From positions 930,001 to 962,000 of the forward strand of contig CP064992.1 in assembly GCA_016699935.1 (NCBI GenBank): DNA of 32,000 nucleotides, read 5' to 3'. The DNA comes from Candidatus Saccharimonadota bacterium (GTDB lineage Bacteria > Patescibacteriota > Saccharimonadia > Saccharimonadales > UBA4665). This document shows, one piece after another, positions 2,891 to 28,402 of the stretch. The notes under the pieces are model-generated. The model made no database searches. It saw only the letters and a list, made by a program, of their open reading frames with translations, and was not told the DNA's origin. The position numbers were made by a program, and so were the translations under genes. Every line of letters starts with the position of its first letter. The stretch's first letter is position 1.

Positions 2891-5271
2891 TCAAGCACCA
2901 ATTGCCATGTACAGCTCACGCTGCAGTTCCAGATAGTCGCTTACTATTTCGTCAGCCGAGCCAAGGACTGAGGTAGCGTCACGCATAGTTTTGTATCGTA
3001 AACTCACGAGACTCGTGAGGTTCTGCATACTTAGCTCATTTTCGCCCTGTTTTTCATAAGTATCGAGGACAAACTTCACAAACTCACGCTCATTGTTGTC
3101 GAGTTGCTCCAGGTAATATTCGCGCACAATTCCGGCACGCTCGACGCGTGTCATTGTATCTTTGGCATAGGCAATGTAGCGTAGTACATCGTATACATCA
3201 CTTTCTTCTGCATCACAAAGCTGCTTAAGTGCTTGCAGTTTCTCCTCTTCAAAACCGCGCTCCGCCAAACCTTGCAGCAAAATTTCACGCGTGCGTGGAT
3301 CACACCACTGTTTACGCAAATCATCTTCGTCCTTAAAGAGCTCTGGTATTTGCCCAAACAATTTCTCCAAGAATTCATGTGGGCTCACGGCTCTCCCGTC
3401 CATATAGAATTTTGTATCGACTGAATATTTAATCTCGCGCTCCTTGCCGTCTCCTAGTCGAACAACCGTTTTTTGCTTCGGCTCTATAGGCACGTCAACA
3501 GCAACATCGCTACCGTCATATGCTGGCTCAGGCTCATCGGTCTCTATTTCGTCATCTTCCGGGTTACCTTGTACGACATCATCAACCACAATAGTCGCTG
3601 GCTCAGGCTCGACCACATCAGTGGTCTCAACTTCTTGCGGCTCGCCATCCCATTCGGGGTCCTCAAATTTAGTGTCGTTGCCATAAAAGTCTACAATCGT
3701 GAAATAATCTTTATCATCATATATGCGAGTACCACGCCCGACGATCTGCTTGAACTCTACCATACTACCAACGCCACGCATCAACACCACAAAACGGACA
3801 TTGCGGGCGTCTACGCCAGTACTGAGTTTACGACTTGTCGTGACTATGGTTGGCACTTGCTTTTCGTTATCACGAAATTCTTCAAGGTAGCTATCGCCAA
3901 GGGCACCTTCTGTAGAAGTTATACGAACACAATAATTACGACCGTCGCCCAGCGTTCCGGCTGGTTTATGTTTATTGATCGCATCCCGCATCATCGCAGC
4001 GTGCTTTTCATCATTACAAAACACGATTGTTTTTGATTTGGATTGATTTGTTCCAGCAGTATCTCCGCCATGCGCTCTTCGCGCTCCGGCAGATAAATCG
4101 CCTTGTTAAAATCACTCAGCGTATATTCGCGCGCCTCGTCCACTTCGCCACTTTCCACAAAATCTTGCGGGTTAAACACGTAGCGGTCCATAGTGGTAGT
4201 GATGCGCTTGACCTTAAAAGGTGTCAAAAATCCGTCTTCAATGCCTTGTCTGAGTGAGTAGGTGTAAACAGGATTACCAAAGTATTTGTAGGTGTCGATG
4301 TTGTCATCACGTTTCGGAGTAGCGGTCAGCCCTAGGTGGGTTGCGCCGTTAAAATGGTCGAGCACTGCCCGCCAGTTTCCTTCATTGCTTGCGCCGCCAC
4401 GGTGACACTCGTCTATGATGATAAGGTCAAAGTAGTCACTTGGGTAATCTCTAAAATACGGATTATCGACGGACCCCCCAGTCATCGCCTGGTAGATACT
4501 AAAGAACATACTACCATTTGTCGGAATCTTGCCCTTCTTTCGCACAGCTTCACCATTTATCCGTACCGCCATGTCGCCAAATGGCTCAAAGTCGCCCATA
4601 GCTTGCTCGACGAGTATATTACGATCAGCCAAGAACAATATGCGTGGCCGGCGTTCATCACCGCGCTTATTCCAACGCGCCTGGTATAGTTTCCATGCTA
4701 TTTGAAATGCTATGGTCGTTTTGCCCGTACCAGTTGCCAGCGTCAAAAGTACTCTGTTTTCATTACCAGAAATCGCCTTTACGGCTGCGTTTATGGCGTT
4801 TTCTTGGTAGTAGCGTGGTCGGTGTTTGATGATCTCGTACGGCTCAGTCAACGCGCGGTACTGCGCGTCATTAACATCGCTATACGTCATTACAAATAGG
4901 TCATCTGGGCTATTATAGCCGCTCACTTCTTCGCCACGGCCAGTCTTCATATCAAAGCAATAGATTCCGTGACCATTCGTACTATACACATAGCGTATCC
5001 CAAGGGTCGCCGCGTAGTCTTTCACTTGTTCTAGCCCGTCAGTAATTTCTTTGTCTTCGGCCTTCGCTTCGACTATGGCAAGTTTCTGATTTTTATAAAC
5101 AAGTACATAGTCGGCTTTTTTAGTTTTTCCGCGTTGCCCACTGCCTATCAGCCGGCCATCGGTAAATACATACTCCGACAATACAAGAGAGCCAGTAGTG
5201 ACATTTTGCCCCCAACCGCACTGGGTCAATTTTGGGTCGATCAGCTCCCGCCGGGTAGTCGCTTCGTTCAT
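2891..5271 (-). CDS. hsdR: type I restriction enzyme R subunit (HsdR), split by 1-nt indel at T5 run 4030-4034
   Basis: ORFs 3991..5271 and 2891..4024. N-terminal nuclease region (LAIVEAKAEDK), helicase motif I (TLATGTGKT), motif II (IIDECHR), then TIVFCNDEKHA and TSRKLSTGVDARNV. Restoring A6 gives NPNQK-TIVFC in one frame. Confidence 0.9.
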
Positions 5272-5287
5272 TACTACTTATTTTACA
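5199..5287. repeat. 89-bp direct repeat, copy A (functional hsdR start + upstream 16 nt)
   Basis: Aligns base for base with 6961-7049. There are 5 mismatches in the first 25 nt and the last 64 nt are identical. Confidence 0.9.
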
Positions 5288-5290
5288 GCA

Positions 5291-5695
5291 TTACAGAGAA
5301 AAGATGACACCGAGATCAACGAACTGATCTTTGATAACTTTCTTCCACTTTGCAGTTATATTTGGCCTGTCTATGTGTTCGCCTTCGGTAAACACGAATA
5401 GAACTCTCACAAGGTGTAGGTTTTCGTTTATATGCAAGATACACCTATTGCCAGACTTAGACGGACCGACTTTTGTACCTTCCACCGCGAAATCCAATTT
5501 TACCAACTTGTGTTCACCTACGCTGTTGATTAAATCGGCCTTCTTGATCCGTAGTAGCGCGTCAATACGCTTGCACATATCGTCGATGTCATCGCGAGTT
5601 TTGTCCCAATTGGATTTGTGTTTCTTTGCGAACGCCTTGATATAGTAACGCTCTGAAAAAGAATCGAATTCTACAGCGTAGTTCGAGGCTTCCAT
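5291..5695 (-). CDS. putative toxin partner of the Panacea-type antitoxin (RelE/ParE-like fold suspected)
   Basis: Intact 134-aa ORF that overlaps the upstream antitoxin by 25 nt. The motif KVGPSKSGNRCILHINENLHLVRVLFVF resembles the beta-core of RelE/ParE-type toxins. Confidence 0.55.
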   Translation of the reverse strand: MEASNYAVEFDSFSERYYIKAFAKKHKSNWDKTRDDIDDMCKRIDALLRIKKADLINSVGEHKLVKLDFAVEGTKVGPSKSGNRCILHINENLHLVRVLFVFTEGEHIDRPNITAKWKKVIKDQFVDLGVIFSL

Positions 5696-6396
5696 ATATG
5701 GTCCGGTTCTTCCTGGGTAATAAGTCCGTAAGGGATTGCCTCACCATCCCTACAGATCTGCCACGGCAATTGGTTATGAGTAAAGTCTACGATTGCCTCT
5801 GTATTGTAGCCTTTCCATACTTTACCAATCTTATCGATCATCCGCTTTTCATCTTTAGTAAGCTCACTGGCAGGTACTTCGCCATTTTCTGCTAAAGAGA
5901 GAAGCATAGCCTTGCCTTTATACTCTGGTGGGTTGATTATACCTTCTTCTTCTAGCTCATCAAGTGCGCGAAAATACACGTCCGCCACGGGCCCACGCGG
6001 TAACTTACGATAGGTCATACCGGACATCGGTGCTAGGTGATCGTAGTACCAGGTAAAATCAGCTAGGTAGACGAGCTTTGCAAGTTTCGTCTTTGTTATC
6101 TTCCCATCAGCATCCGCGCCGGCTTTAAGAGCGTTGAGAATAATTTGCTTATATTTTTTGACTGCTTCAAGCGTATTTGACAAAGTCGAAATCCCATCCG
6201 GTGCCCCAATCAAATCGCCCAATTCAACGCGCAACATAGCTGCCATTTTTTCTGCTTGCGATACAGTGATTTCTTTTTTGCCAGCCTCAATAAGGGCATA
6301 AGTCTGACGACTCATACCTAGTACCTCGGCTACTTGCTCCATCGTTAGCCCACGCGCTAGACGAGCACTTTCGAGATTCTTACCCACATTACTCAT
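5671..6396 (-). CDS. XRE-HTH + DUF4065 (Panacea domain) antitoxin
   Basis: Intact 241-aa ORF. N-terminal HTH (LTMEQVAEVLGMSRQTYALIEAGKKEITVSQAEKMAAML). DUF4065-like core (TKLAKLVYLADFTWYYDHLAPMSGMTYRKLPRGPV ... FTHNQLPW). Confidence 0.8.
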   Translation of the reverse strand: MSNVGKNLESARLARGLTMEQVAEVLGMSRQTYALIEAGKKEITVSQAEKMAAMLRVELGDLIGAPDGISTLSNTLEAVKKYKQIILNALKAGADADGKITKTKLAKLVYLADFTWYYDHLAPMSGMTYRKLPRGPVADVYFRALDELEEEGIINPPEYKGKAMLLSLAENGEVPASELTKDEKRMIDKIGKVWKGYNTEAIVDFTHNQLPWQICRDGEAIPYGLITQEEPDHIWKPRTTL

Positions 6397-6426
6397 AGTG
6401 TTGTCCTTCGTTTGTTATTTGTTTTT

Positions 6427-6455
6427 AGTTTAGCGTACTTAACAGTATATGTCAA
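6427..6455 (-). promoter_or_regulatory. sigma70-like promoter for the TA operon
   Basis: On the minus strand: TTGACA (6455-6450), 17-nt spacer, TAAACT (6432-6427), about 30 nt upstream of ATG 6396. Confidence 0.45.
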
Positions 6456-6458
6456 GAA

Positions 6459-6480
6459 ATACAACATAGTCAACTTGTAT
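6459..6480. promoter_or_regulatory. inverted repeat ATACAA-N10-TTGTAT, candidate operator for the HTH antitoxin
   Basis: Perfect 6-bp arms immediately upstream of the -35 element. Confidence 0.3.
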
Positions 6481-6669
6481 TTTTAACATCCGTCTGTTAG
6501 GATAGAGGTAATTCGGAGAGGAATCCGGAGGGTAAAAATAGGAAAAGCGCCTATCCAGCGCTTCCTTATACAAGAATGTTCCTCAACAAATTGTATAGCT
6601 CCTATCTTACCACATATAGAATTAAGTGGTAATTCCGCCGCAAACCGAAAGAAAGGAGCTACAACAACT

Positions 6670-6900
6670 ATGGCAGGCAAACAAGTCCACACTACCTACA
6701 GCAAGCAAGCTGGCAACTGGCGCAATGTTTCCGCTGGCTCAAGCCGACCGGCAAAGGTGTACGACACCAAGGTGCAGGCACAAACCGCTGGCCGCCAACA
6801 GGCGATCAACAACAAAACCGAGCATGTCGTTCACAATCAGAACGGCCAGATTGCTTCACGCAACAGCTACGGTGGCGATCCGCACCCACCAAAGGGCTAG
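6670..6900 (+). CDS. DUF2188 domain protein
   Basis: Intact 76-aa ORF with AGGAG upstream. The C-terminus NGQIASRNSYGGDPHPPKG matches the family hallmark ...SYGnDPfPPKG. Confidence 0.7.
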   Translation: MAGKQVHTTYSKQAGNWRNVSAGSSRPAKVYDTKVQAQTAGRQQAINNKTEHVVHNQNGQIASRNSYGGDPHPPKG

Positions 6901-8212
6901 GTCACATCACCGCCAAAAGAGGCACTCTCTATGAGGCCTCTTTGGTTTGCTAACTCATCGTGACATTCTAGCCCCAACCGCATTCGGTCAATTTTGGGTC
7001 GATCAGCTCCCGCCGGGTAGTCGCTTCGTTCATTACTACTTATTTTACACTCACTTTGAGAAAACGCTTGCGTCAGCAAGGATTGCTTTAGTGTGCGAAG
7101 CATACTAACTTTTGACTGATATTTTGCAATCAACGAAGATAACTTCGCAGAAATATCATCAAGTTTCTTTATGATCTCATCTTGATCTGATATCGATGGT
7201 AGCGTAAATGCATACGCAAACAAGTGAGGCCTATTCACTTTCGGCATACCGGCTCTATCTGAACCAGAAATGGCATATTGAGTAAAGTCATTTGATAATA
7301 GTAGATAATATAAGTAGTCTCGCCTTACCTCATTGGTGGGAAGAAGCGGGTAAATATCCGCGCTACACAAACCAGAAAAATCTGGTCGGACAACCTTTTT
7401 GAGGTATGGACGTATTTTGCTATACAAGACCATTGTTCCATCAAAAGGAAACTTACTAGAAATTAGCTTCTCTTCTTTCGCCATTTTTAAGTTGATTAGC
7501 TGCCCTGTTTCAGGCTCAATGTTCGCACCACCAACATGCAGGCACTCGTTATATGGCTCATATCGAGGATCAATTAATTTTGAGTCTATGGTGCAAACAT
7601 CTCCTAGACATTGTTCTTCACCTATTACATTTCTGAGAATCTCAGTGTATAACCGATAGTACAGAGTCCGAGTATATTGAATATTCTTCTCCGTCAACTC
7701 AATAGCCCGATCAATCTTCTCAAAAGCTGCGTCCAGCCGCTCTACCACCCGCCGTTGCTCTTCGAGCGATGGGAGATATATATCAAGTGATTGTAGTTTT
7801 GTTATTGTTAATGTGTCTACGGTCGTTCCGTTACTCAAGCTGCTCGAAAAATGCTGCTGATTTAAACCATTGGTTTACGTAGCCACTCGGTCAACATCAC
7901 TAGTTTTTTTCAGCCAAAGGACACTCGCGTCTTTAAAATAAAACTTCTCATTTGCCTGTACGATATAGTATTACCTATTGTCCCTATAGCGGTGATCATG
8001 ATGTCGCCTTCTGTTGGGACCCCGTTCTTATGCGAAAGATCATTGTATAAATCTTCAGAAATGTATAGTTCATTGTTTGCATTACCCGTTTTTGATAGCC
8101 TCGTAATTTCACGCCCACGATAAAACGGTATGCCCGAGCTTTTCCACTGTGATTTCAACACTCTTCTGCTAGAGCTAATGGTAAATGTGTCGCCAAGCTT
8201 CACAGTTTTCAT
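6897..8212 (-). CDS. hsdS: type I R-M specificity subunit (HsdS), two TRDs, at least 2 frameshifts; the last ~50 codons read through the hsdR remnant and are probably not native
   Basis: ORFs 7910..8212 and 6897..7838. Conserved spacer helices LPSLEEQRRVVERLDAAFEKIDRAIEL and LPSISDQDEIIKKLDDISAKLSSLIAKYQSKVSMLRTLKQSLLTQAF. Stops in the other two frames cluster at 7040-7055, just before the hsdR-remnant ATG. Confidence 0.85.
6913..6945 (+). terminator. weak hairpin downstream of the DUF2188 gene
   Basis: CCAAAAGAGGC-12 nt-GCCTCTTTGG (one bulged A) followed by TTTGC. Confidence 0.3.
6961..7049. repeat. 89-bp direct repeat, copy B (hsdR 5' remnant next to hsdS)
   Basis: See copy A. The repeat period is 1762 bp. 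Confidence 0.9.
6968..7033 (-). pseudogene. 21-codon remnant of the hsdR 5' end
   Basis: ATG 7033 reads MNEATTRRELIDPKLTECGWG then TAG. The true HsdR N-terminus is MNEATTRRELIDPKLTQCGWGQ. Confidence 0.85.
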
Positions 8213-9271
8213 TCGGAGTAAACTCCCTTTAATATTTCAAGCCTCGCTAATAGCCCGTCATACGTCATAATAATGTTTTTTCATCGCCTTACGAAAAAAC
8301 GAGAATGAGCGTCTTTTTGTCTTCATCCATTGATGAAGTATTGCGATCGCCAATCAACAAGATGCCCATGGGATCAAGACGATTTAGGTCAGAAAAGTCC
8401 GCCCGAGCATTGTCTGAAAGTCGTTAACGGCAACACGTATTTGATTCTCCATCTGGACAAGACTTCCGGTTAGCTGAGCAGACATGGAATAGCAGATATT
8501 CTCTCTTCCTTCATCGTCTCCTCTATATTGTCCGCCAACAAGCGGTGTTGTAGGAGGCTTTATTTCAACAACAGCAAAACTACCATTCGCACCATTTAAG
8601 AACAGCTGGTCTGTCGCTACGCCACCTTGGCCGTTTCTCCCACGCGTGTTCTTGCCGCCTACATATGTCTCGCCTTGCATATAGTAGAGCGGGAAATGAA
8701 AGATCTGTTGGATAATCCAGGAATTATTATCAAAATAATCCTGCCAAAAGGATTCAACCCTGTTTCCGAGGTTTTCCCGTATGAAATCTATTGCTGTCTG
8801 AAGCTTTGCAGTTGCAACAGCATTTTCTATGGAACGAAAATTATTAGCCTCAAGCTCTCTTAGTTTTCCGATGATCAGATCACGATTTGCACCATCGCTA
8901 ATTTGCAGAAGTATTCCTTCAGCATTGTTATCTGCGAGAGAAAAAGTTGTATCACCATATCGGTGTCCCCACTGCTCTAGCAAGGCCTTGATTCTTTCGA
9001 GGTTAGAGAATAATGTCGCCATGTCTTCACCACTGAGATTCAGTTCGTATGCCTCATCTCGATGGAGGGTTGTAATTGACCTGCCCTCGAATTCTTCCCA
9101 TGTCTCATTTCTACCCTTTTTTTCAAAGCGAAAGCCCCCGCGTAAGTGATTATCGGACGCATCAACCCATATTGGATAAAAAAATAATCTGGTTGAGCCG
9201 GTTTCATGTAGGGGTATCGGGCTAACATCCATAGTCCCTGCTGAAGTCGAATGAGTATTTATCTCAGGCAT
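8209..9271 (-). CDS. DUF4263 / Shedu (SduA)-like PD-(D/E)xK nuclease with unassigned N-terminal domain; C-terminal 60 codons reached through three homopolymer frameshifts, two traced to T6 8276-8281 and A6 8294-8299
   Basis: ORF 8384..9271. Motifs SFWQDYFDNNSWIIQQIF ... GGVATDQLFLNGANGSFAVVEIKPP ... SAQLTGSLVQMENQ. The continuation reads DPMGILLIGDRNT...IIIMTYDGLLARLE. Stop TGA overlaps the hsdS ATG (ATGA at 8209-8212). Confidence 0.55.
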
Positions 9272-9285
9272 ACTGAACCTTTAGC

Positions 9286-9848
9286 CTATTCTTGCTCATT
9301 TTTTTCTGCTTTGATTGTATTTAACACTTGCGCAAGCTTGTATGCACTAATATTCAAGATATCCATAATCGCAGCATTAGTGTGACCTTCACTCTTAAGC
9401 TGTTTGACGAGGTCTTTCCTTTTTTCATGCAAATTATCCTGAAATTCATAAAATTTCTGAGCTTCATACCATCCCAGGCTTTCATTCCAAATATTTGGAA
9501 TGTAGAAAGTGATTGTACGCGTGTTTCCTGCCTCATAATGATAACCAAGCAAGATCGTGATAATATCCAACGCATTCACAAATAGCTTTCTGTAGTCATC
9601 CTCGCTCTTTGCGGCACCAAGTTCTTTCTCTATACGCTCAAGGTAGAGTCTACATGCGCTCTTGAAATGACTATCTGCAATCAAATCATCGATATCTTGC
9701 CTGAGTTTTTTGACCAAAGTCTTCACATCTTTTTGAAATATTTTGGATTTTGGTATGCAGAAGCAAACCCATAATACTTGTCCCCAAAAACGTTTCGCAT
9801 CAACATTTCGGTACGCATTCCGTCGCTATAGTATCTAGATTCAGTCAT
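9286..9848 (-). CDS. hypothetical ~187-aa protein with C-terminal HTH-like segment; frameshift at T5 run 9730-9734
   Basis: GGAG lies 8 nt upstream of ATG 9848 (MTESRYYSDGMRTEML...YFKK). That piece joins ORF 9286..9726 if the A5 run is read as A6. The C-terminus is GHTNAAIMDILNISAYKLAQVLN. I recognise no family. Confidence 0.4.
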
Positions 9849-9870
9849 TATCTATACGTCTCCGAGACGA

Positions 9871-11332
9871 TTATTGTTCATAGGCTAAGGTCCTCAGTAT
9901 TTCAGCAACTTCTTTATCGATTTGCTTGATATCCTCTAAAATATCCTCTGGTGTTTTTAGTTCTTCGGCTTCTGGCGCGAAGGGGTTTTTGACACCTAGG
10001 TCGAAGGTGGTTTGGTCGAGGTCTTCGGCTTTGACCGTCCATGAGTTTTCACTGGTTTCTCGGGTTTTGAACTTTACCAGGAAATCGTCGAAGTCGTGAA
10101 TGTTCAGCGGATTGGTTTTACCGAGGTTGCGACTAGGGTTGAGTTGGTAGTACCAAATATCCCGCGTTGGTTCGCCTTTGCGGAAAAACAGCACCACGGT
10201 TTTGACGCCGGTCGAGCCAGTCGCGCTAAACACACCGCCTGGCAGGTCAAGGATGGTATGTAGGTTAAAGCCTTGCAGCAGCTCTTTACGAATCTTGCCC
10301 GTCGCGCCATTTGGCTCATTGGTCAGGAATGTGTTTTTATAACTATCGCCGCTTCACCGCCAGTACGAAGATTCTTCATGAAGTGCTGTAGAAATAGGTT
10401 TGCAGTTTCACGAGTCGGGATTTTGAAGTTGCGCTGAACTTCAGGGCGCTCATTGCCACCGAATGGTGGATTTGCCAGTATATAATCAAACCGATCTTTT
10501 CCTGAATGTCGCGCGTGTCTTCATTGAGCGTGTTAGCATGCACCATGTTTGGCGATTCTATGCCGTGCAAAATCATATTCATCGTGCCCAGTAGGTATGG
10601 CTCTGGCTTTTTATTCTTGGCAAAGAACGTACGCTCTTTTAGAAAAGACAGTTCGTTCGCCATTTTCCTGGCTGCGTAGGTAGGCATAACTTTCGGTTAA
10701 AAACCCTGCCGATCCTGCTGCGCCGTCATAGATAGTTTTGCCCAGTTTTGGCTGCACCGCCTGAACCATAGCCTGTATAAGTGGTCGCGGCGTATAAAAC
10801 TCACCGCTGCGCCCTGCTCCACCCATAAGCTTCAAACGATCTTCATATAATGCAGATAACTGGTCAAGCTCATCCTGAGTCTGAAATTGAAGATTGTCGA
10901 TGATATCTATCACTTCCCGGAGGTTGCGCCCGCTCTGAATCTTATTTGTGATTTCACCAAATATTTCGCCGATTTTGTAGGTCAGCGTTTTGGGGTCATT
11001 TTCGGCATTTTTGAACGAGCGAAGGTATGGGAAAAGCTGGTGATTCACAAAGCCCGTCAGATCATCGCCTGTCATTTGCGCAGATATATCGGGTGAACCA
11101 TCTGCTTTCTTTGGTGCCGCCCATATGTCCCACTGGTGTTCGGTCTTAAACAACGGCTGGTACGCAATCTGGTGCAGTGTCGCTTCGTCCTTGCGCACCT
11201 CTTCAAGGTCGTCAAGATATTTCAAAAAAGAATCCATGACATCTGTGCCATGTAGTCATTCGCACCATTTGTCCCCGCATCCTCAAACAGGATATTGTCT
11301 ATGCGTTTAAATTCAGCTCTAATATCAGCCAA
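9871..11332 (-). CDS. hsdM: type I R-M DNA methyltransferase subunit (HsdM), at least 3 frameshifts
   Basis: Pieces 10611..11237, 10376..10687 and 9871..10233/10104..10319. The N-terminal HsdM domain (MSWILF|LKYLDD) is restored by adding one T at the run 11224-11229. SAM motif GEFYTPRPL...IYDGAAGSAGFL. Catalytic NPPFG is read as ANPPFGGNE in the shifted frame near 10450. Candidate TTG start at 11332 after AAGGGGG. Confidence 0.9.
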
Positions 11333-19444: not shown

Positions 19445-19613
19445 GAGGCTCAGGTAATGACAGTCCTCTTACAGATGATTAAACTCAAGAATACGTTTGG
19501 GATGGGGTAAAAGATAGGGGTGGGTTTAACCGCATTTTTCTAATATTGTCTGCTGGGTCGGCTGCGCCTCTTTCATAAAACCATGCTCGTAGTAAGCTCC
19601 TGCTCGTGGTTTT
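19445..19613 (+). repeat. G-run repeat, copy C4 (left arm + core + long right arm)
   Basis: ...ATGACAGTCCTCTTACAGATGATTAAACTCAAGAATACGTTTGGGATGGGGTAAAAGATAGGGGTGGGTTTAACCGCATTT...CTGCTGGGTCGGCTGCGCCTCTT...CATGCTCG. Confidence 0.85.
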
Positions 19614-19677
19614 ATTTCAGTTGCACCAGAATACCTGTGACATCTGGCTCTAGAACCCAACAGCCAAAACCAAACAA

Positions 19678-19702
19678 AAAACCCCTCCTATACGAGGGTT
19701 TT
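19678..19702 (-). terminator. rho-independent terminator downstream of the DUF2075 gene
   Basis: On the minus strand: AAAACCCTC-GTATAG-GAGGGGTTTT followed by TTGTTTGGTTTTGG. Confidence 0.65.
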
Positions 19703-19789
19703 GTATTTAGCTCAGCTTGTTGGTCGCGGATGATTAACAGGTCAAAATCCTACGAACGGTACTGAAAGTTATTTTGTCCAATACTCGTA

Positions 19790-21749
19790 TCAATAACCAG
19801 TGTCTCTTGATTGTCCAACTAGCTCTTCTATTCCAATAGATTTGAAGTAATTAAATGTAGAGTCATAAAACTCTTGTTTCCTCGTTGCATCAGGGGATAA
19901 TTACCGTTCGGCAAGAAAATAATCATACCTTGTCTAGCCCTTGTTAAGAGCACGATAAGCATTTTTGCTTCTTGTTGATTTGATATGTTATTTTGCCATA
20001 TTATGCCTTTGAGCTGGTACTTTTTGAATTAAAATATTGCCAATCAGCTACATTAAAACGCATGTCAGCGTCCCAGCAAACTAGTGAATAATCAAGCTCT
20101 AACCCTGGCATACAAACTCCGAGGCTGCATCCTCTAAGAAATATGAGCTTTTGTTGTTTTCTTTTTCGCCTAAGAAATAGTGGACTTCGTTAATACCCTT
20201 ATTGCTATCTATGGCAAATGGTATCAGTCTTTGCGCTCTACTGGTGGCTAGCATTCCTGGACGCTCTGTACCTTTTTGTTTGTTTTCTTATCCAATCTTT
20301 AGCAATTTTTAGATCGCGAGTTATTTTTATTGGATATGCGTCTTCTAGCTCTTATAGATATTAGCCGCAGAGGCGTCGATATCTAGCAGCGCTTTTACAA
20401 AAATTAGACAATTTTCAGCTCTAAATGAACGCATGGAAGTCGCTAGATGGAGTTCGTGATATTTTTGTGCATTATTTGGCACATTCGAAACATTATATTC
20501 AGAATCGACTAAGTTCGGCGATATTGCAATTTGCCAGTCCGCCGGGACAGCATCAACCCATGCACTAATGCCAGCTTCGCCTTTTTTTTGAGCTCTTGTC
20601 CACCGCCAACAAGGCAGACTATACACGCCCAATCTTTGTGTCTATCCAGGGTATGAATTAAAAACCAGATTCAGATTCGCCATGAACCCACTGCCTTTTC
20701 TTTCTATTCATCCAATTTGTGATAGTATTACCATCCCAGGCTCTCTGAGCTTCATCAAAGATTGCCACATGTTCGCTGGGTGGATTTTCGTCATTAATGT
20801 ACTCATCGCGATAGTGGTGAACTATTTGTATAAACGATTTAACTTTATTTCTGGCATAACCTATCCGAATACCATTTTTGTCCTTCTCGTCTCTCGCCAG
20901 CGCTTCAGTCAGTACGTTTACAAGTGGCCCGTTGCCAGACAATAGTACGGCATGATCTTCTGAATTTGAGTCTCTTTTTGGGTTGCTATATTTAATCCAA
21001 CAAGAGTTTTCCGGCTCCAGGAACGCCTGTAACAAAAATAATTGTCTTTTTGTTGTTTTGCATTTGCAGTCATCAATTATTTCATTTATTTTCTTGCACG
21101 TTGTAGTTATGTTGTCACCTGCCTCGCTTCGAGTGATGTCTTCAACGCTGTGGCCTGAATACAATTCTCTTGCTGCTTCGATTATTGTCGGAGTCGGTTT
21201 GTACGGTGACTCTTCCCATCCTTCAGCTCCGTTACCGGTCAAATATTCAATAGATCCCACATAATCTTTTAAATGAATACTGCCCAAACAGTCAGCGCCT
21301 TCAATATTTCGTGGCTCACCCCTATATTCTGATACTACTAATGCCGGGAATATATCGGCTTTATGTGAACCTAAATGAAAATTTTTTAGCTCAAGCATAT
21401 AGTCAATTACTTGGTCTATGTCTTTAGCTATAAATTTATTTTGTCCAATTTTAAATTCTAATAAAACAATGTGCGGACTATCAGAATGTATTAACAAAAT
21501 TACGTCTATTCTCCTCCCCATACGAGGAATAACAAATTCTAAAAAAATAGTGGCATTATCAATATCGCATAGTTGGTCTTTTAGGATTTCAATTTCGGAA
21601 CGCCACGTTTCAAATTGTGGTTGCTCGACATTAAATCCATCGCGAATACTGCCCTGTGATAATTGGCCAATAATAGAATCATTGTTTTGTTGAAGAAAAT
21701 CAGCTACTGATGATTTGTACCAACTTGCATTTAAGAGCCTTGTGGCCAC
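19790..21749 (-). CDS. DUF2075-type protein (N-terminal PD-ExK-like nuclease module + P-loop ATPase/helicase-like domain), many frameshifts in the C-terminal two thirds
   Basis: ORF 20658..21749 has [25 protein letters not shown] and [16 protein letters not shown] 20345..20632 and shifted fragments down to 19790 continue it ([52 protein letters not shown]). The true start may be ATG 21761 (MSKK) if the A5 run is A6. Confidence 0.65.
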
Positions 21750-21826: not shown

Positions 21827-21965
21827 GAGGACAGTTCTCTAACACATTAAGAAAATGTGAATACGTTTGGGATGGGGAGAAAGACAGGGGTGGGTTTAAC
21901 CGCATTTGGCAAGTTTCGGCTGCTGGGACGGCTACGCCTCTTCCGCTGCGGCATGCTCGTTAACC
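21827..21965 (+). repeat. G-run repeat, copy C5 (left arm + core + right arm)
   Basis: GAGGACAGTTCTCTAACACATTAAGAAAATGTGAATACGTTTGGGATGGGGAGAAAGACAGGGGTGGGTTTAACCGCATTTGG...GCTGCTGGGACGGCTACGCCTCTT...CATGCTCG. Confidence 0.85.
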
Positions 21966-22086
21966 TTTGGCTACCTGCGCGTGCCCACGCTACACCGCAG
22001 CACTTTCGCTCCGCAAAAGAACTAGTTCTCTCGCCATGCAGGCGAAAACAAATAGAGGAAGTTATAACTAAAAAAAGAAGACCTAG

Positions 22087-22557: not shown

Positions 22558-22650
22558 ATATCTCTTCGATTATCTCACAGAATATATGAATAATCCTTAG
22601 CAAATTCGGCGACTGGCATTATCGGTTTCAATTCCACTCTGGGTATACAA

Positions 22651-22682
22651 AAAGTCAGAACCATTTTCACAGTTCTGACTTT
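22651..22682 (-). terminator. bidirectional hairpin terminator (inside ~90-bp repeat 22615-22703)
   Basis: AAAGTCAGAAC-10 nt-GTTCTGACTTT with T-runs on both strands. The same hairpin and flanks recur at 24010-24099. Confidence 0.65.
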
Positions 22683-22782
22683 GTCTTTTACGGCTTGGCT
22701 CACAACGATAAAGGCAGTTATAGGCATGATTAAGCAAGACATTGCTTATGAAATGTAGGAATTATAGTAATTATCCTAATTT

Positions 22783-23967
22783 TCAAATTCTTATAAATTC
22801 TAAACCAGCTGCCTCTAATATTGGTAATGTCGAGAGTGGGTTAGTACGAAATTCTGCATGTATATCAGCCAGTCTATCGATAAGATCTTGCCTTCGAGCT
22901 GTTTTCATGACTGTAATCCATGCCGCCATGAAGTTTGCTCTATCCTTTGGAATAATCCCATGTTCAACAGCATTATCTATCGGTTCCCACAACATTCCTT
23001 CTAAAACTAATTGTGCAGAGTATTTAGCAACTTTTTCATCGGTAATACCAAACGGATGCGAAGAGAAAAACTGATCAAGAACAGTGCCAGAGTAAGATAA
23101 GTGCCCCAGCACATCTGCTTTACCTGCGAAAACTCTAAGTGCTTCAATCCCTAGGTTTCTGTAAATATGAACCATTGTATGATGTCCAGTACCGTAAACA
23201 ATATTTACTGGTAAGCGTCCGTCATCAGTATTAATTCTTGCTCGTTGAGCTAGGGCACGTACTTTATCGGAGTTTTCTGTTCCAAAACTTGAAGATCCTT
23301 CCTCGACTGCATCTATTTGTTCAAGCGTTTCCAGAACCTGTTTAGTACTTGTAAGCTCTCTGACGGCGTTAGAGTACATTACGAGACGGCCTTTTTGACC
23401 TTGTTCTTCTAACAATTGACCTAGTTCTTTTTGGCGTAATTCTCGTCCAGGAATTGACCTATTCAAGAATTGCTGATCGTAATCGTTACCCATAAGTGCA
23501 TCTAATAACCTACGAGAGTAGTGTCTAATATCAACAGGAGCAATTAGACTGCTTCTCGCCAACAAGCCTCGATCACGCCAATACCCGAAATCCTCTCTGG
23601 GTTGTGGTGGTAGATAAAATGGCATTCTTGGTGGTTGTACATTGAACTGCATATCAAATGCATTGCCTACCGAGTATCCGAACAATTTACTGTCTGCAAT
23701 CTCAGCATCACCTGCATTTTCAACAAAGGAAATGAATGGAGAGCCGCCAGCTTCAATTGATTGAGCTGCGTTTATTGAATTGCCGTGTGCATTAAAAACA
23801 AACAATAAATGATAGCGTGCGTTAATTGTAATAACACGTTCAGGACTAGCTAGAACGGTTACTTGATCATGAAGCTGTTCGGCAGCTGATTGAAACGCGT
23901 TGACACGATCTTCAGGATTTAGATCCTCTCGAAATAAACGAAGAATATCTTTAGGGGTATTTGACAT
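22783..23967 (-). CDS. hypothetical 394-aa protein, family not recognised
   Basis: Intact ORF 22783..24048. I prefer Met 23967 (MSNTPKDILRLF) because the upstream 27 codons lie inside the terminator repeat. Weak reminders of Tiki/TraB-type motifs (FVFNAHGNS, IVYGTGHHTMVH), speculative only. Confidence 0.5.
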   Translation of the reverse strand: MSNTPKDILRLFREDLNPEDRVNAFQSAAEQLHDQVTVLASPERVITINARYHLLFVFNAHGNSINAAQSIEAGGSPFISFVENAGDAEIADSKLFGYSVGNAFDMQFNVQPPRMPFYLPPQPREDFGYWRDRGLLARSSLIAPVDIRHYSRRLLDALMGNDYDQQFLNRSIPGRELRQKELGQLLEEQGQKGRLVMYSNAVRELTSTKQVLETLEQIDAVEEGSSSFGTENSDKVRALAQRARINTDDGRLPVNIVYGTGHHTMVHIYRNLGIEALRVFAGKADVLGHLSYSGTVLDQFFSSHPFGITDEKVAKYSAQLVLEGMLWEPIDNAVEHGIIPKDRANFMAAWITVMKTARRQDLIDRLADIHAEFRTNPLSTLPILEAAGLEFIRI

Positions 23968-24047
23968 TCTTATAAAATAACTCAATTTATTTGTAGATAG
24001 CAAGCATATGCATAATCGTTCGGTTTCAATTCTATCTTTGTTATACA

Positions 24048-24078
24048 AAAGTCAGAACCAAAATTCAGTTCTGACTTT
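24048..24078 (-). terminator. hairpin terminator, second copy of the 22651-22682 element
   Basis: AAAGTCAGAAC-9 nt-GTTCTGACTTT. The flanks GCATAATCG..GGTTTCAATTC and GCTTGGCTC are shared with the first copy. Confidence 0.6.
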
Positions 24079-24178
24079 ATCTGCTCCAGCTTGGCTCCCC
24101 TAGTAGACGCATTGCGAACTAAGCACTACTCACCCATCATCAAAATGGCTAATGAATTTAAGCTTTGTTTCGACTCTC

Positions 24179-24547
24179 TCACACCTGATTCTGTCTAAGG
24201 GCTGCGTCCATGAGAGCCTGCATGAATAAAGATTCTCTGATAGCACCTGCTGTCTCTTCGGTTGCATCCGGACGGATATCAGTCTGCAGATGCGCGCCAC
24301 CGTATTCAGGAAAAACTGTAGATAAGTGAAAGTTACCACGCGTATCTCTTGCTAGAGTTTGATAGGCTAGACGATCTTTAATCAATCCGTGTACTAATAG
24401 CTTTTGAGTAGTATTTGGGTCTCCTGTTGCTAAGCCGACCCCGCTGTAGCACCGCTCCTCCTCAGTTAAGGCTGGATTATCTCCTAAAAAGGCACCGTGT
24501 AAGTGCTCTGTCAATCGGTAGATAGGTGAAACCGTGTACATAAACAT
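24179..24547 (-). CDS. hypothetical 122-aa protein
   Basis: Intact ORF with no recognised motif. It starts directly against the tRNA-derived repeat unit a. Confidence 0.4.
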   Translation of the reverse strand: MFMYTVSPIYRLTEHLHGAFLGDNPALTEEERCYSGVGLATGDPNTTQKLLVHGLIKDRLAYQTLARDTRGNFHLSTVFPEYGGAHLQTDIRPDATEETAGAIRESLFMQALMDAALRQNQV

Positions 24548-24581: not shown

Positions 24582-24674
24582 TGGCTCCGGGGACTGGATA
24601 GCGCTTCGCTATACCGTCGCTCCAGTGCTCGAAGCAAGCTTCTGTGCTATTCACTCCTTACGAACCAGCATCCT
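24582..24674 (-). repeat. tRNA-Asn-derived pseudo-unit a
   Basis: TGGCTCCGGGGACTGG (24582-24597) equals tRNA 24937-24952. CGAACCAGCATCCT (24661-24674) matches tRNA 24956-24969 at 12/14. The two blocks are separated by 63 nt instead of the 3 nt that separate 24952 and 24956 in the tRNA. Confidence 0.8.
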
Positions 24675-24764
24675 ACGCACGACTATGTCGTGCTGGTCAC
24701 TGGTCCAAAGCCAGTCTCAGGGTAAATAAAAATGACCAGACATGAATGCCTGATCATATTTATT

Positions 24765-24853
24765 TGGCTCCGGGGACTGGGTGACATCGTTTTCGGTCAC
24801 TGTGCTCGGAACAAGCCCCTGTGCGCAGTTCCTGCCAACCGAACCGGCGACCT
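24765..24853 (-). repeat. tRNA-Asn-derived pseudo-unit b
   Basis: TGGCTCCGGGGACTGGG (24765-24781) equals tRNA 24937-24953. CGAACCGGCGACCT (24840-24853) matches at 13/14. The blocks are separated by 58 nt, and that insert is ~70% similar to the unit a insert. Confidence 0.8.
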
Positions 24854-24909
24854 CGCTCATTACATTCGCTGATCTCTAGTTCAAACTCAATCTCGATAGC
24901 CAAATTAAA

Positions 24910-24929
24910 ACCGCCTCTTTTGAGACGGT
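24910..24929 (-). terminator. hairpin + T-run just 3' of tRNA-Asn
   Basis: On the minus strand: ACCGTCTC-AAAA-GAGGCGGT (7 of 8 pairs) followed by TTTAATTT. Confidence 0.5.
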
Positions 24930-24936
24930 CATAATT

Positions 24937-25011
24937 TGGCTCCGGGGACTGGGCTCGAACCAGCGACCTAGTCGTTAACAGCGACCCGCTCTACCACTGA
25001 GCTACCCCGGA
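24937..25011 (-). tRNA. tRNA-Asn (anticodon GTT), CCA encoded
   Basis: Reverse complement: TCCGGGG TA GCTC AGTGGTA GAGC G GGTCG CTGTTAA CGACT AGGTC GCTGG TTCGAGC CCAGT CCCCGGA G CCA. This folds as a 75-nt cloverleaf by hand, with two G-U pairs. Confidence 0.9.
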
Positions 25012-27916: not shown

Positions 27917-28402
27917 CTAGAGGTTTTTTATAGCGCGCTGCGCAGTGCGGTCGTCATCGCGTTTTCGCAGGGTCTGGCGCTTGTCCCAAGTTTTCTTGCC
28001 TTTGCCGATGGCGATACGGAGCTTTATGAAACGTCCTCCAGTGAGGATTTCTAGTGGCACAATGGTGCGACCCTGCGTCTTGGCCTCAATAAGGGCGTTT
28101 ATTTCCCGGCGCTTGGCCAGGAGCTTTCGGGTACGGGTTTGGCTACTTTCGTCTATTGGTACGCTGCTGGTACCGTTTATGGTGCCATTTAGCAAATACA
28201 GTTCGTCGTTTTTGACGGTTACATAGGCACCGCGCAGCTGTCCATGCCCCATCCGTAGGCTTTTAACCTCGCCACCGGTTAGTTCCAAGCCTACCACCAT
28301 AGAATCATCCAGTTCGTAGTCGTGTCTTGCCCGTCGATTCTGGATCGACTTTACCTGGTTGACTACGTGCTTATGCCCGCGCCGAGTAGCTTTCTTTGCC
28401 AT
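27917..28402 (-). CDS. smpB: SsrA-binding protein SmpB
   Basis: Intact 161-aa ORF: NRRARHDYELDDSMVVGLELTGGEVKSLR ... RTRKLLAKRREI ... GKGKKTWDKRQTLKRD. Confidence 0.9.
   Translation of the reverse strand: MAKKATRRGHKHVVNQVKSIQNRRARHDYELDDSMVVGLELTGGEVKSLRMGHGQLRGAYVTVKNDELYLLNGTINGTSSVPIDESSQTRTRKLLAKRREINALIEAKTQGRTIVPLEILTGGRFIKLRIAIGKGKKTWDKRQTLRKRDDDRTAQRAIKNL

Follow-up and report, generated by a model that had tools for sequence, protein, structure and literature searches.

What are the two additional copies of a tRNA 3′ half that follow the tRNA-Asn gene in the genome of a Candidatus Saccharimonadota bacterium, each of them interrupted in the T-loop by an insert of about 60 nt? The gene lies in a stretch of 32,000 nt (contig CP064992.1 of assembly GCA_016699935.1, positions 930,001 to 962,000; GC content 45.6%), which is called the window throughout. 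All coordinates are positions in this window, unless they are preceded by the name of a locus from another genome or metagenome (L followed by a number). A first-pass annotation had described the two copies, here termed units a and b, as decayed. The results reported here show that they belong to a conserved family of folded elements, which are matched to the neighboring tRNA and occur behind tRNAs of 13 identities.

The only tRNA gene of the window, identified with ARAGORN and with the Rfam tRNA model (66.8 bits), encodes a tRNA-Asn(GTT) including its CCA and is located on the minus strand (25011..24937). The 16-mer TGGCTCCGGGGACTGG from its 3′ end occurs exactly three times, at 24582, 24765, and 24937, while 100 shuffles of the window gave an expectation of zero. 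A second tRNA block, CGAACC(A/G)GC(G/A)(A/T)CCT, is present at 24661, 24840, and 24956, and the insert cores of unit a (24625–24647) and unit b (24802–24824) are homologous, with 83% identity. Thus, the three tandem copies, the displaced second block and the homology of the inserts, all of which had been noticed in the first-pass annotation, were reproduced, and so was the position of the break, exactly after the TTCG of the T-loop. Both units carry tRNA sequence from the variable region via the T-stem 5′ strand as far as TTCG. After an interruption of 59–61 nt, the tRNA sequence continues with two residues of the T-loop, which are AT in unit a and AC in unit b, and then with the 3′ strands of T-stem and acceptor stem and GCCA. 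The resumption of the tail with AT or AC plus CCAGT means that a single T-loop residue, A58, has been exchanged for 59–61 nt. The acceptor strand of the units is that of the adjacent tRNA, CCCCGGA-G-CCA, and 16–18 nt at the end of each unit are shared with the 3′ end of tRNA-Asn. The D-arm and the anticodon arm are missing.

The homology of the two units is not confined to the tRNA blocks, but extends along their whole length of about 140 nt. Read in the sense of the tRNA, that is, along the minus strand, the order is tRNA-Asn (24937..25011, with its last 18 nt, a ATCCAGTCCCCGGAGCCA-type tail, repeated by the units), T1, unit b, T2, unit a, a gap of 35 nt, and an open reading frame (ORF) of 122 codons. 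T1 (24903..24936) is a palindromic, terminator-like element between the tRNA CCA and unit b, with a hairpin and T-run at 24930..24909. T2 (24724..24764, inverted repeat I2) is the hairpin and T-run between units b and a; its stem at 24757..24732 is the separate hairpin that had been ascribed to unit b before. Unit b (24765..24902) consists of a 5′ arm (24902..24871), a tip region (24870..24854), a segment A1 (24853..24840), the insert domain (24839..24781), and the tail CCAGTCCCCGGAGCCA (24780..24765), A1 being the variable region, T-stem 5′ strand and TTCG of a tRNA within a unit. The parts of unit a (24582..24723) are the 5′ arm (24723..24694), a tip hairpin GCACGAC-ATA-GTCGTGC (24693..24677), A1 (24674..24661), the insert domain (24660..24600), and the tail ATCCAGTCCCCGGAGCCA (24599..24582).

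The statement that neither unit has a 5′ acceptor strand is literally true, but it misses the 5′ arm, which in each unit is an imperfect reverse complement of the whole tRNA 3′ half. The perfect complement of the 3′ half of tRNA-Asn is TGGCTCCGGGGACTGGATTCGAACCAGCGACC, and the 5′ arm of unit b reads TGGCTATCGAGATTGAGTTTGAACTAGAGATC. Because the 5′ arm is antisense to the tRNA 3′ half, a unit is a long imperfect hairpin, with the insert branching off its 3′ arm at the T-loop. Together with the preceding palindrome, this results in a module of about 175 bp, composed of the palindromic hairpin T, the antisense arm, the tip hairpin, A1, a conserved three-helix insert and an 18 nt tRNA tail. Each module sits as a discrete insertion directly behind the CCA of a tRNA gene.

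Could the units nevertheless be debris of tRNA-Asn genes? Direct repeats of a tRNA 3′ end at a locus that carries islands are what would be expected of 3′-half duplicates left by integrase-mediated islands, or of tandem tRNA genes that decayed in situ, with a fortuitous insert shared by one local duplication, and some tails elsewhere in the family are indeed truncated or mutated. However, ARAGORN called neither a tRNA nor a pseudogene at units a and b, and the Rfam tRNA model matched the true tRNA-Asn gene only, even at E values up to 10. Furthermore, the two units are 64% identical, and each is slightly closer to a unit in another genome (unit a to the L010 and L013 units, 68%; unit b to the L014 unit, 70%). 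Therefore, they represent two subtypes that stand side by side, rather than a fresh duplication.

The family context is decisive on this point. We scanned metagenome contigs with a pattern derived from the insert only (CRCAG-N4-TT-N4-CGAG-N8-AGCGGARAAGG), which does not include any tRNA sequence. The scan yielded 103 loci, only 3 of which have the Asn tail of the window. For 72 of the 103 loci, a tRNA gene is present on the same strand not more than 280 nt upstream. The identities of these tRNAs are Met and Ser (13 each), Asn (10), Asp (8), Gln (5), Leu and Glu (4 each), Lys, Arg, Pro and Phe (3 each), and Trp and Ala (1 each), and one could not be assigned. In 47 of the 72 cases the tail of the unit copies at least 11 nt of the neighboring tRNA's own 3′ end, and for 33 of 61 distinct tRNA-linked units the copy is exact over 15–16 nt, most of the others deviating by a few changes. 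The 5′ arm also varies with the tRNA: its match to the reverse complement of the local tRNA 3′ half has a median length of 28 nt and 70% identity, with a median alignment score of 27.5 versus 17 in shuffled controls, and it can pair with A1 as well as with the tail, the median being 11 pairs in either case. An ungapped first search for this outer helix had been too noisy for use. The impression that nearly all deviations of the 5′ arm are transitions did not hold family-wide (200 transitions versus 221 transversions). The palindrome T (about 34 nt: A-run, GC stem, loop, GC stem, T-run) lies between the tRNA CCA and the 5′ arm in 58 of 58 tRNA-linked units, is always complete, and continues into the CCA/TGG. 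The orientation of the unit always matches that of the tRNA, and its end carries the tRNA's own processing signals. On two contigs of 0.82 and 0.94 Mb the strict insert pattern occurs once each.

The insert is not only conserved, but its helices strongly covary. The four positions on each side of the TT, which the search pattern left free, are all paired in 85 of 88 distinct units, comprising 343 Watson-Crick, 6 G·U and 2 A·C oppositions and at least 10 distinct Watson-Crick stems. As the arms differ among units, a plain MAFFT alignment with RNAalifold gave a poor consensus, and an anchored analysis was used instead. In the resulting alignment A4 of 80 distinct inserts, five helices were named, and 87.3% of the paired cells of this structure are compatible with pairing, compared to 73.0% in column shuffles, none of 500 of which reached the observed value; the fraction drops to 31–38% when the partners are slid by one to three columns. 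The covariation score is 0.413 versus 0.162. Since the helices covary, a single-stranded fold must be required, irrespective of whether it is formed by RNA or by a DNA strand. At position 57/58, a single A of the T-loop gives way to the insert (TTCG|A|AT or TTC|A|AGT).

A covariance model, R1, was built from the metagenome inserts and then run on the window. It recovered unit a (24668..24588, 36.6 bits, E = 1.3e-6) and unit b (24847..24771, 33.2 bits, E = 9e-6), and in addition two further units on the minus strand, unit c (22003..21914, 39.1 bits, E = 3e-7) and unit d (19629..19547, 33.2 bits, E = 8.9e-6), whereas its best score in 650 kb of control DNA was 21 bits. Unit c (21914..22050) is a diverged module with the tail CCCAGCAGCC.. 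and without an adjoining tRNA; unit d (19547..19703) comprises a palindromic hairpin, a 5′ arm and an insert domain, and has the tail CCCAGCAGAC... The tails of both start with CCCAGCAG, and both are followed by a common sequence of about 70 nt (AAATGCGGTTAAACCCACCCCT.TCTTT..CCCCATCCCAAACGTATTC). As direct repeats they bracket a segment of 2.3 kb with a Schlafen-like helicase fragment (ORF 21749..20658). All four units, a to d, have an insert domain with the helices H3, H4, and H5 between TTCG and AT plus the T-stem 3′ strand. Model R1 and alignment A4 provide a defined sequence model with which the family can be annotated.

An insert that is conserved with compensatory changes in at least 100 loci, behind 13 types of tRNA, and that is recognized by R1 in the window with scores far above those in control DNA, is not in accord with decay, and ordinary tandem tRNA genes degenerating in situ are not what related genomes show. 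The designation of the units as decayed is thus unsupported, and their origin as tRNA debris is very improbable; they have the appearance of conserved, functional modules. Apparently, the family of folded elements of about 140 nt has not been described before. A literature search did not reveal a description of such tRNA-matched elements, and they are absent from Rfam and from the phage and plasmid collections searched. Of the 4,227 models of Rfam 15, which include ribozymes, riboswitches, YrlA, signal recognition particle (SRP) RNA and 6S RNA, only tRNA reached its gathering score in the window, and no credible sub-threshold match was found over the units of the window or of nine metagenome loci. 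The Rfam 15 scans of the window and the loci matched only tRNAs and two group I introns. These introns are located in the anticodon loops of two tRNA-Asn genes that precede units (L007:1281–1574, plus strand, 91.7 bits; L154:3987–4236, minus strand, 84.1 bits; Rfam Intron_gpI), and ARAGORN misses both genes because they are split.

How did the units come to their places behind tRNA genes? Scanning one genome per species for GGTTCG, followed after 40–70 nt by the Asn tail, resulted in 26 loci, at least 14 of which are from metagenome-assembled genomes (MAGs) of Candidatus Saccharibacteria, Saccharimonadia or Patescibacteria. One unit lies 163–185 nt behind tRNA-Asn in five of the loci (L004, L012, L013, L014, and L023) and 185 nt behind the intron-split tRNA-Asn of L007, which ARAGORN does not call. 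In five further loci (L009, L018, L020, L021, and L026) the fetched sequence of 8 kb (5.1 kb for L026) contains a unit and no tRNA. At L001, the terminator-bearing native flank follows directly after tRNA-Asn, with neither a unit nor an R1 match, and the same flank follows a unit in L009 and in the window. These comparisons show that the module is present behind tRNA-Asn in some genomes and absent in others. Tandem units of different subtypes were found not only in the window, but also in L192, L123, L133, L114, L158, and L023. Matches of the genome scan in Ruegeria, Eisenbacteria and Microbacterium were set aside as unrelated or as high-GC chance matches, in which R1 finds nothing. The Ruegeria MAG has the Asn-tail pattern nine times (L002, L003, L006, L008, L011, L015, L017, L022, and L025) with an identical span of 67 nt, which indicates some other dispersed repeat containing the same 16-mer.

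Two observations concern the internal organization of the units. In L192 (minus strand, about 7140–7700 in reverse-complement coordinates) one tRNA-Asn is followed by two units that hardly differ from T via 5′ arm and tip to A1 (about 70 nt), but carry different insert subtypes, one short and one long; this pair suggests an exchange at the insert boundaries. In L141, L146, L165, and L186 (e.g., L186:291–345), and similarly in L188, the tail is broken after ATCCGGCCTC by a hairpin-forming insert of about 45 nt (TCTTCGAGTCTGAGCCTGAGGGCTCATCCCTCAGAGTCGAATGA) and then continues with CCGGAGCCA.

The first-pass annotation had also proposed that the repeats are the footprint of integrase-mediated island insertion. 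This proposal is correct insofar as the tRNA-Asn locus is a genuine integration hot spot, with ordinary att remnants of islands downstream of the units. Remnant 1 (24092..24124, minus strand) is a degenerate T-loop-to-CCA copy, GCTTAGTTCGCAATGCGTCTACTAGGGGAGCCA, and closes an insert of about 0.5 kb (ORF 24547..24179) that starts at the CCA of unit a. Behind it lies a copy of the native downstream flank of tRNA-Asn with its terminator (24046..24091, minus strand; AGCTGGAGCAGATAAAGTCAGAAC..GTTCTGACTTTTG; inverted repeat I14), homologous to the flanks in L001 and L009. Remnant 2 (22696..22712, minus strand; ..TTTATCGTTGTGAGCCA; ..TATCGTTGTGAGCCA, ending at 22696) closes the next insert, with ORF 24048..22783, and is followed by a second copy of flank and terminator (22640..22695, minus strand), which runs on into sequence common with L009 (..TTTTTGTATACCCAGAGTGGAA). 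(G)GAGCCA forms the end of both remnants, with a flank copy AGC..AAGTCAGAAC-loop-GTTCTGACTTTTTG behind each of them. Ends like that of remnant 1, AGTTC..N~20..GGAGCCA, occur in L009, L019, L020, L099, and L192, nearly the same end as that of remnant 2, TATTGTTGTGAGCCA, occurs in L123, and similar island ends precede T and a unit in L009, L019, L020, L099, L123, L165, and L192. Comparison of L186 with L165 revealed an island of 2.9 kb that has the CCA and T as its immediate neighbors. The succession in the window is thus tRNA-Asn, T, unit b, T, unit a, island 1, island 2, and native flank. These junctions show that the entry point of islands is a CCA, either that of the tRNA or that of a unit, so that the tail of a unit is used like a tRNA end. 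In contrast, the units themselves are not scars of one island event, and no integrase was found in the scanned ORFs of the window or among the families listed for 138 ORFs downstream of units elsewhere. That a spacing of 180 bp and a conserved T-loop insert do not look like simple attL/attR pairs had been recognized at the outset, and we agree. Islands of the tyrosine-integrase type at tRNA genes (P4 or the high-pathogenicity island), which have crossover sublocations in the T-loop and at the 3′ end, resemble the present case in the direct tRNA 3′ repeats at an island-rich tRNA locus, the break in the T-loop and the tails that serve as island junctions; they differ from it in that here only 156–167 bp of non-coding, conserved sequence separate the tail repeats, a covarying 60 nt domain and an antisense tRNA half are present, no integrase is linked, and 13 types of tRNA are involved.

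Our tentatively preferred reading, which we hold to be plausible though short of probable, is that the units are small recombination modules that were inserted at tRNA 3′ ends and that have a conserved single-stranded fold. The T-loop is a known crossover sublocation for tRNA-targeting integrases. The module would be the integrated form of a small recombination element, one strand of which would fold into the long imperfect hairpin and thereby form a double-stranded replica of the tRNA gene that extends from the variable region to the CCA, with the conserved insert bulging at the T-loop position, that is, at the crossover region. The partners of the exchange would be a tRNA gene and a small circle, in which tail, T, antisense arm, tip, A1 and insert would succeed one another. 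If strands were exchanged once where the T-loop meets the 3′ strand of the T-stem, the product would be an intact tRNA, followed by T, antisense arm, tip, A1, insert, the duplicated 18 nt tail and the native flank, which is the order observed. The recombinase might be encoded by the host or by an island. Once integrated, the tail would constitute a second attB at which islands accumulate, which would explain the window layout of tRNA, unit b, unit a, island 1, island 2 and native flank. Recombination would likewise account for the intact tRNA, the 18 nt duplicated tail, the existence of sites with and without a unit, the mixed composition of the tandem arrays, the fact that neither a promoter nor a linked recombinase is present, and the later use of the tails as attB by islands.

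The closest parallels are the attP(+) site of CTXphi, which is recombined by XerCD (an integrative mobile element exploiting Xer recombination, IMEX), and the attC sites of integrons. IMEX elements lack a recombinase of their own, and for CTXphi attP(+) as for integron attC the substrate of recombination is a folded single strand. In these systems, as in the units, an imperfect hairpin of 130–150 nt, the central bulge of which is non-complementary, recreates the chromosomal target as a duplex, the integrated product consists of an inverted copy, a spacer and a target copy beside the intact target, and the structure is conserved by compensatory changes. As in CTXphi, the units have two inverted target-like sites, a forked hairpin and an unpaired center, formed by the pairing of the 5′ arm with A1 and the tail and by the insert in the T-loop. 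In contrast to both systems, the target would be a tRNA gene from the T-arm to the CCA instead of dif or attI, the bulge is a conserved three-helix domain, neither dif-like nor R/L-box motifs are present, and the units are known from sequence alone, no single-stranded DNA circle or phage having been observed.

Several points weigh against recombination. The strand-exchange model is purely topological, and neither a free circle nor an excision junction nor a recombinase was seen. A vehicle is also missing: the viral contigs (searched with insert-core and unit patterns) and the phage and plasmid collections (searched with blastn) did not contain a match; 63 viral matches obtained with a looser pattern were all chance matches in coding DNA. 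A selfish element of 175 bp would need to have three arm segments re-matched for each new tRNA, for which we can offer no mechanism. Moreover, the tail identity is not always kept, since about 13 of the 61 tails are truncated or diverged, with the remainder not found downstream in the same locus. One of the pointers to DNA, namely that in units with a drifted A1 the 5′ arm tends to keep to the tRNA sequence instead (18 versus 8 cases in the unbiased version of the test, an earlier version having been biased by the choice of the partner window), comes from a small test without significance (p = 0.08). Lastly, the unpaired purine-rich segments GGAGCGAGG, CRCAG/CGAGCA around the central hairpin, and AGCGGARAAGG are conserved in all tRNA contexts and resemble a functional RNA or a protein-binding domain, and CUUG and GAAA loops also suit RNA.

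If the modules recombine, might they be the recombination sites of a tRNA-anchored, integron-like cassette array? In this variant of the recombination idea, each cassette (an ORF or a unit) would be a circle with a hairpin and a tRNA-tail-like site that enters at the ..GAGCCA of the tRNA or of the previous cassette, and the conserved insert would be the structure recognized by the recombinase of the array. Such an arrangement is reminiscent of the successive co-oriented segments in the window, L123, L099, and L192, which end with (G)GAGCCA and begin with a hairpin, of the 2.3-kb segment between the direct repeats c and d, and of the genes downstream of the units: the 138 ORFs within 2.5 kb encode varied small enzymes typical of cassettes, including GNAT, APH, HIT, and NUDIX proteins and methyltransferases. 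Nevertheless, we consider a cassette array improbable. Neither an IntI-like nor any other integrase was found near the units examined. Integrases, transposases and reverse transcriptases are absent from the 25 most frequent families listed for the 138 ORFs; the 10 ORFs flanking lone units contain no integrase, and the window ORFs scanned contain no Phage_integrase or recombinase domain. Clustering of the ORFs next to units did not reveal a conserved partner protein, the largest cluster being spurious ORFs across the conserved unit itself. Visual inspection of the sequence did not reveal the RYYYAAC/GTTRRRY core sites of attC in the units: the arms end in TGG../..CCA, and the internal GAAC/GTTC is off consensus. 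In addition, the segments with ORFs terminate in short degenerate tRNA tails instead of units, and most loci consist only of tRNA, T and unit, followed by unrelated genes.

The main alternative is that the unit is a structured small RNA gene or a co-transcribed 3′ extension, the outer helix of which mimics the top half (acceptor and T-arm) of the neighboring tRNA and ends with NCCA. The insert would then be an expansion of the T-loop between positions 57 and 58, and the RNA might be made by read-through of the tRNA terminator, trimmed by tRNA end-processing enzymes, and act as a tRNA-specific partner, decoy or sensor; a transcript from the opposite strand is equally possible. We regard this explanation as a serious one, albeit on the doubtful side. 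It is favored by the strong covariation in combination with the conserved unpaired purine-rich loops, by the G(CUUG)C and GAAA loops, by the constant orientation and the processing signals shared with the tRNA, and by the retention of the units in very small genomes of many lineages. Folding also gives a slight preference for the tRNA-sense strand (−55.2 versus −53.3 kcal/mol for whole units; better in 50 of 77 units, p = 0.005), and the loops of this strand, G(CUUG)C, GAAA and GAA, speak for it as well. Yet the insert helices have 142 A·C oppositions versus 32 G·U on the sense strand, and A·C would be G·U on the opposite strand, which would favor an antisense RNA; the A·C oppositions cluster at two positions, and at one of these they alternate with four types of Watson-Crick pair. 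Among the loops, C(GAA)G or C(GNA)G triloops prevail, which are classic hyperstable DNA mini-hairpins and unusual in RNA. Obviously, the strand signals conflict, and the asymmetry is weak or contradictory. Further arguments against an RNA are that T and the 5′ arm leave no space for a promoter between them, that neither strand has a promoter-like site in the stretch from the tRNA to the units, that palindromes resembling bidirectional terminators bracket the units, that the outer helix is only about 70% complementary although the tail is often exact, and that changes in A1 tend not to be compensated by the 5′ arm. The variable presence and the heterogeneous tandem arrays resemble insertion events, and a single strict-pattern copy per contig of 0.82 or 0.94 Mb, with different tRNAs at different loci, is unlike a housekeeping RNA locus.

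Known RNAs provide partial parallels to such a transcript. The tRNA-like domains of transfer-messenger RNA (tmRNA), YrlA/Y RNA, mascRNA and viral tRNA-like structures share with the units an acceptor/T-arm-like helix, a T-loop of the type TTCG..A, and a 3′ NCCA, and smpB is located nearby in the window and in L012. In contrast to these domains, the mimicry follows the adjacent tRNA instead of a fixed identity, and the 5′ partner is a continuous antisense strand. ARAGORN and Rfam did not find a tmRNA, YrlA or viral tRNA-like structure. A tmRNA, in one or two pieces, was rejected, as none was called in the window or 18 loci and the acceptor is that of the adjacent tRNA. The smpB gene lies 2.9 kb upstream of tRNA-Asn in the window (27917–28402, minus strand) and directly upstream of tRNA-Asn and a unit in L012 (L012:779–1240); no tmRNA gene was detected near smpB in the window or the L012 stretch, and an exact look-up of the SmpB protein returned no record. 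T-box leaders and the bridge RNA of IS110 resemble the units in the combination of a conserved core with flanking segments that change to match a tRNA or a target, but differ from them because the units have no T-box sequence, no regulated-gene pattern downstream, no DEDD/IS110 recombinase, and arms of about 30 nt that pair with one another. SRP RNA, T-box, retron, K-turn, known self-cleaving ribozymes and IS110 bridge RNA were dropped for want of a model match, of defining features or of the partner gene.

A broader proposal takes up this target matching. The units might be tiny, gene-less elements of Patescibacteria that combine a conserved core with arms copying the 3′ half of a chosen tRNA in both directions; folded as single-stranded DNA or as RNA, they would mimic the tRNA gene or the tRNA, direct recombination to its 3′ end, and create or mark landing pads for defense and accessory islands. 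We consider this proposal speculative and rather unlikely; if it were true, one scaffold would serve as a recombination site or guide for many tRNAs. tRNA genes are the classic landing sites of genomic islands, and the sites themselves are viewed as passive. Here, a conserved folded module that is matched to the tRNA ahead of it sits exactly at the island junction, in episymbiotic bacteria with very small genomes. A recombination module would represent a novel strategy by which tRNA genes are targeted in the absence of a linked integrase and could explain the organization of islands in these genomes, while an RNA would represent a new family of tRNA-specific mimics with an expanded T-loop. In the few Saccharibacteria that are in culture, the family is accessible to direct experiments.

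The remaining features of the window concern the island genes. The ORFs of the two small islands behind unit a, 24179–24547 (122 aa) and 22783–24048 (421 aa), both on the minus strand, have no Pfam match, and the assembly collection contains no record of the exact 122-aa product. Positions 2891–11237, which lie downstream of the tRNA-Asn hot spot, harbor a defense-type cluster, with ORFs for an HsdS-like protein, an N6-methylase fragment, a Shedu SduA-like protein and an antitoxin-like protein of the HTH-SocA/Panacea type. The R subunit of a type I restriction system in this cluster is split into two ORFs (5271..3991 and 4024..2891) and is possibly a frameshifted pseudogene.

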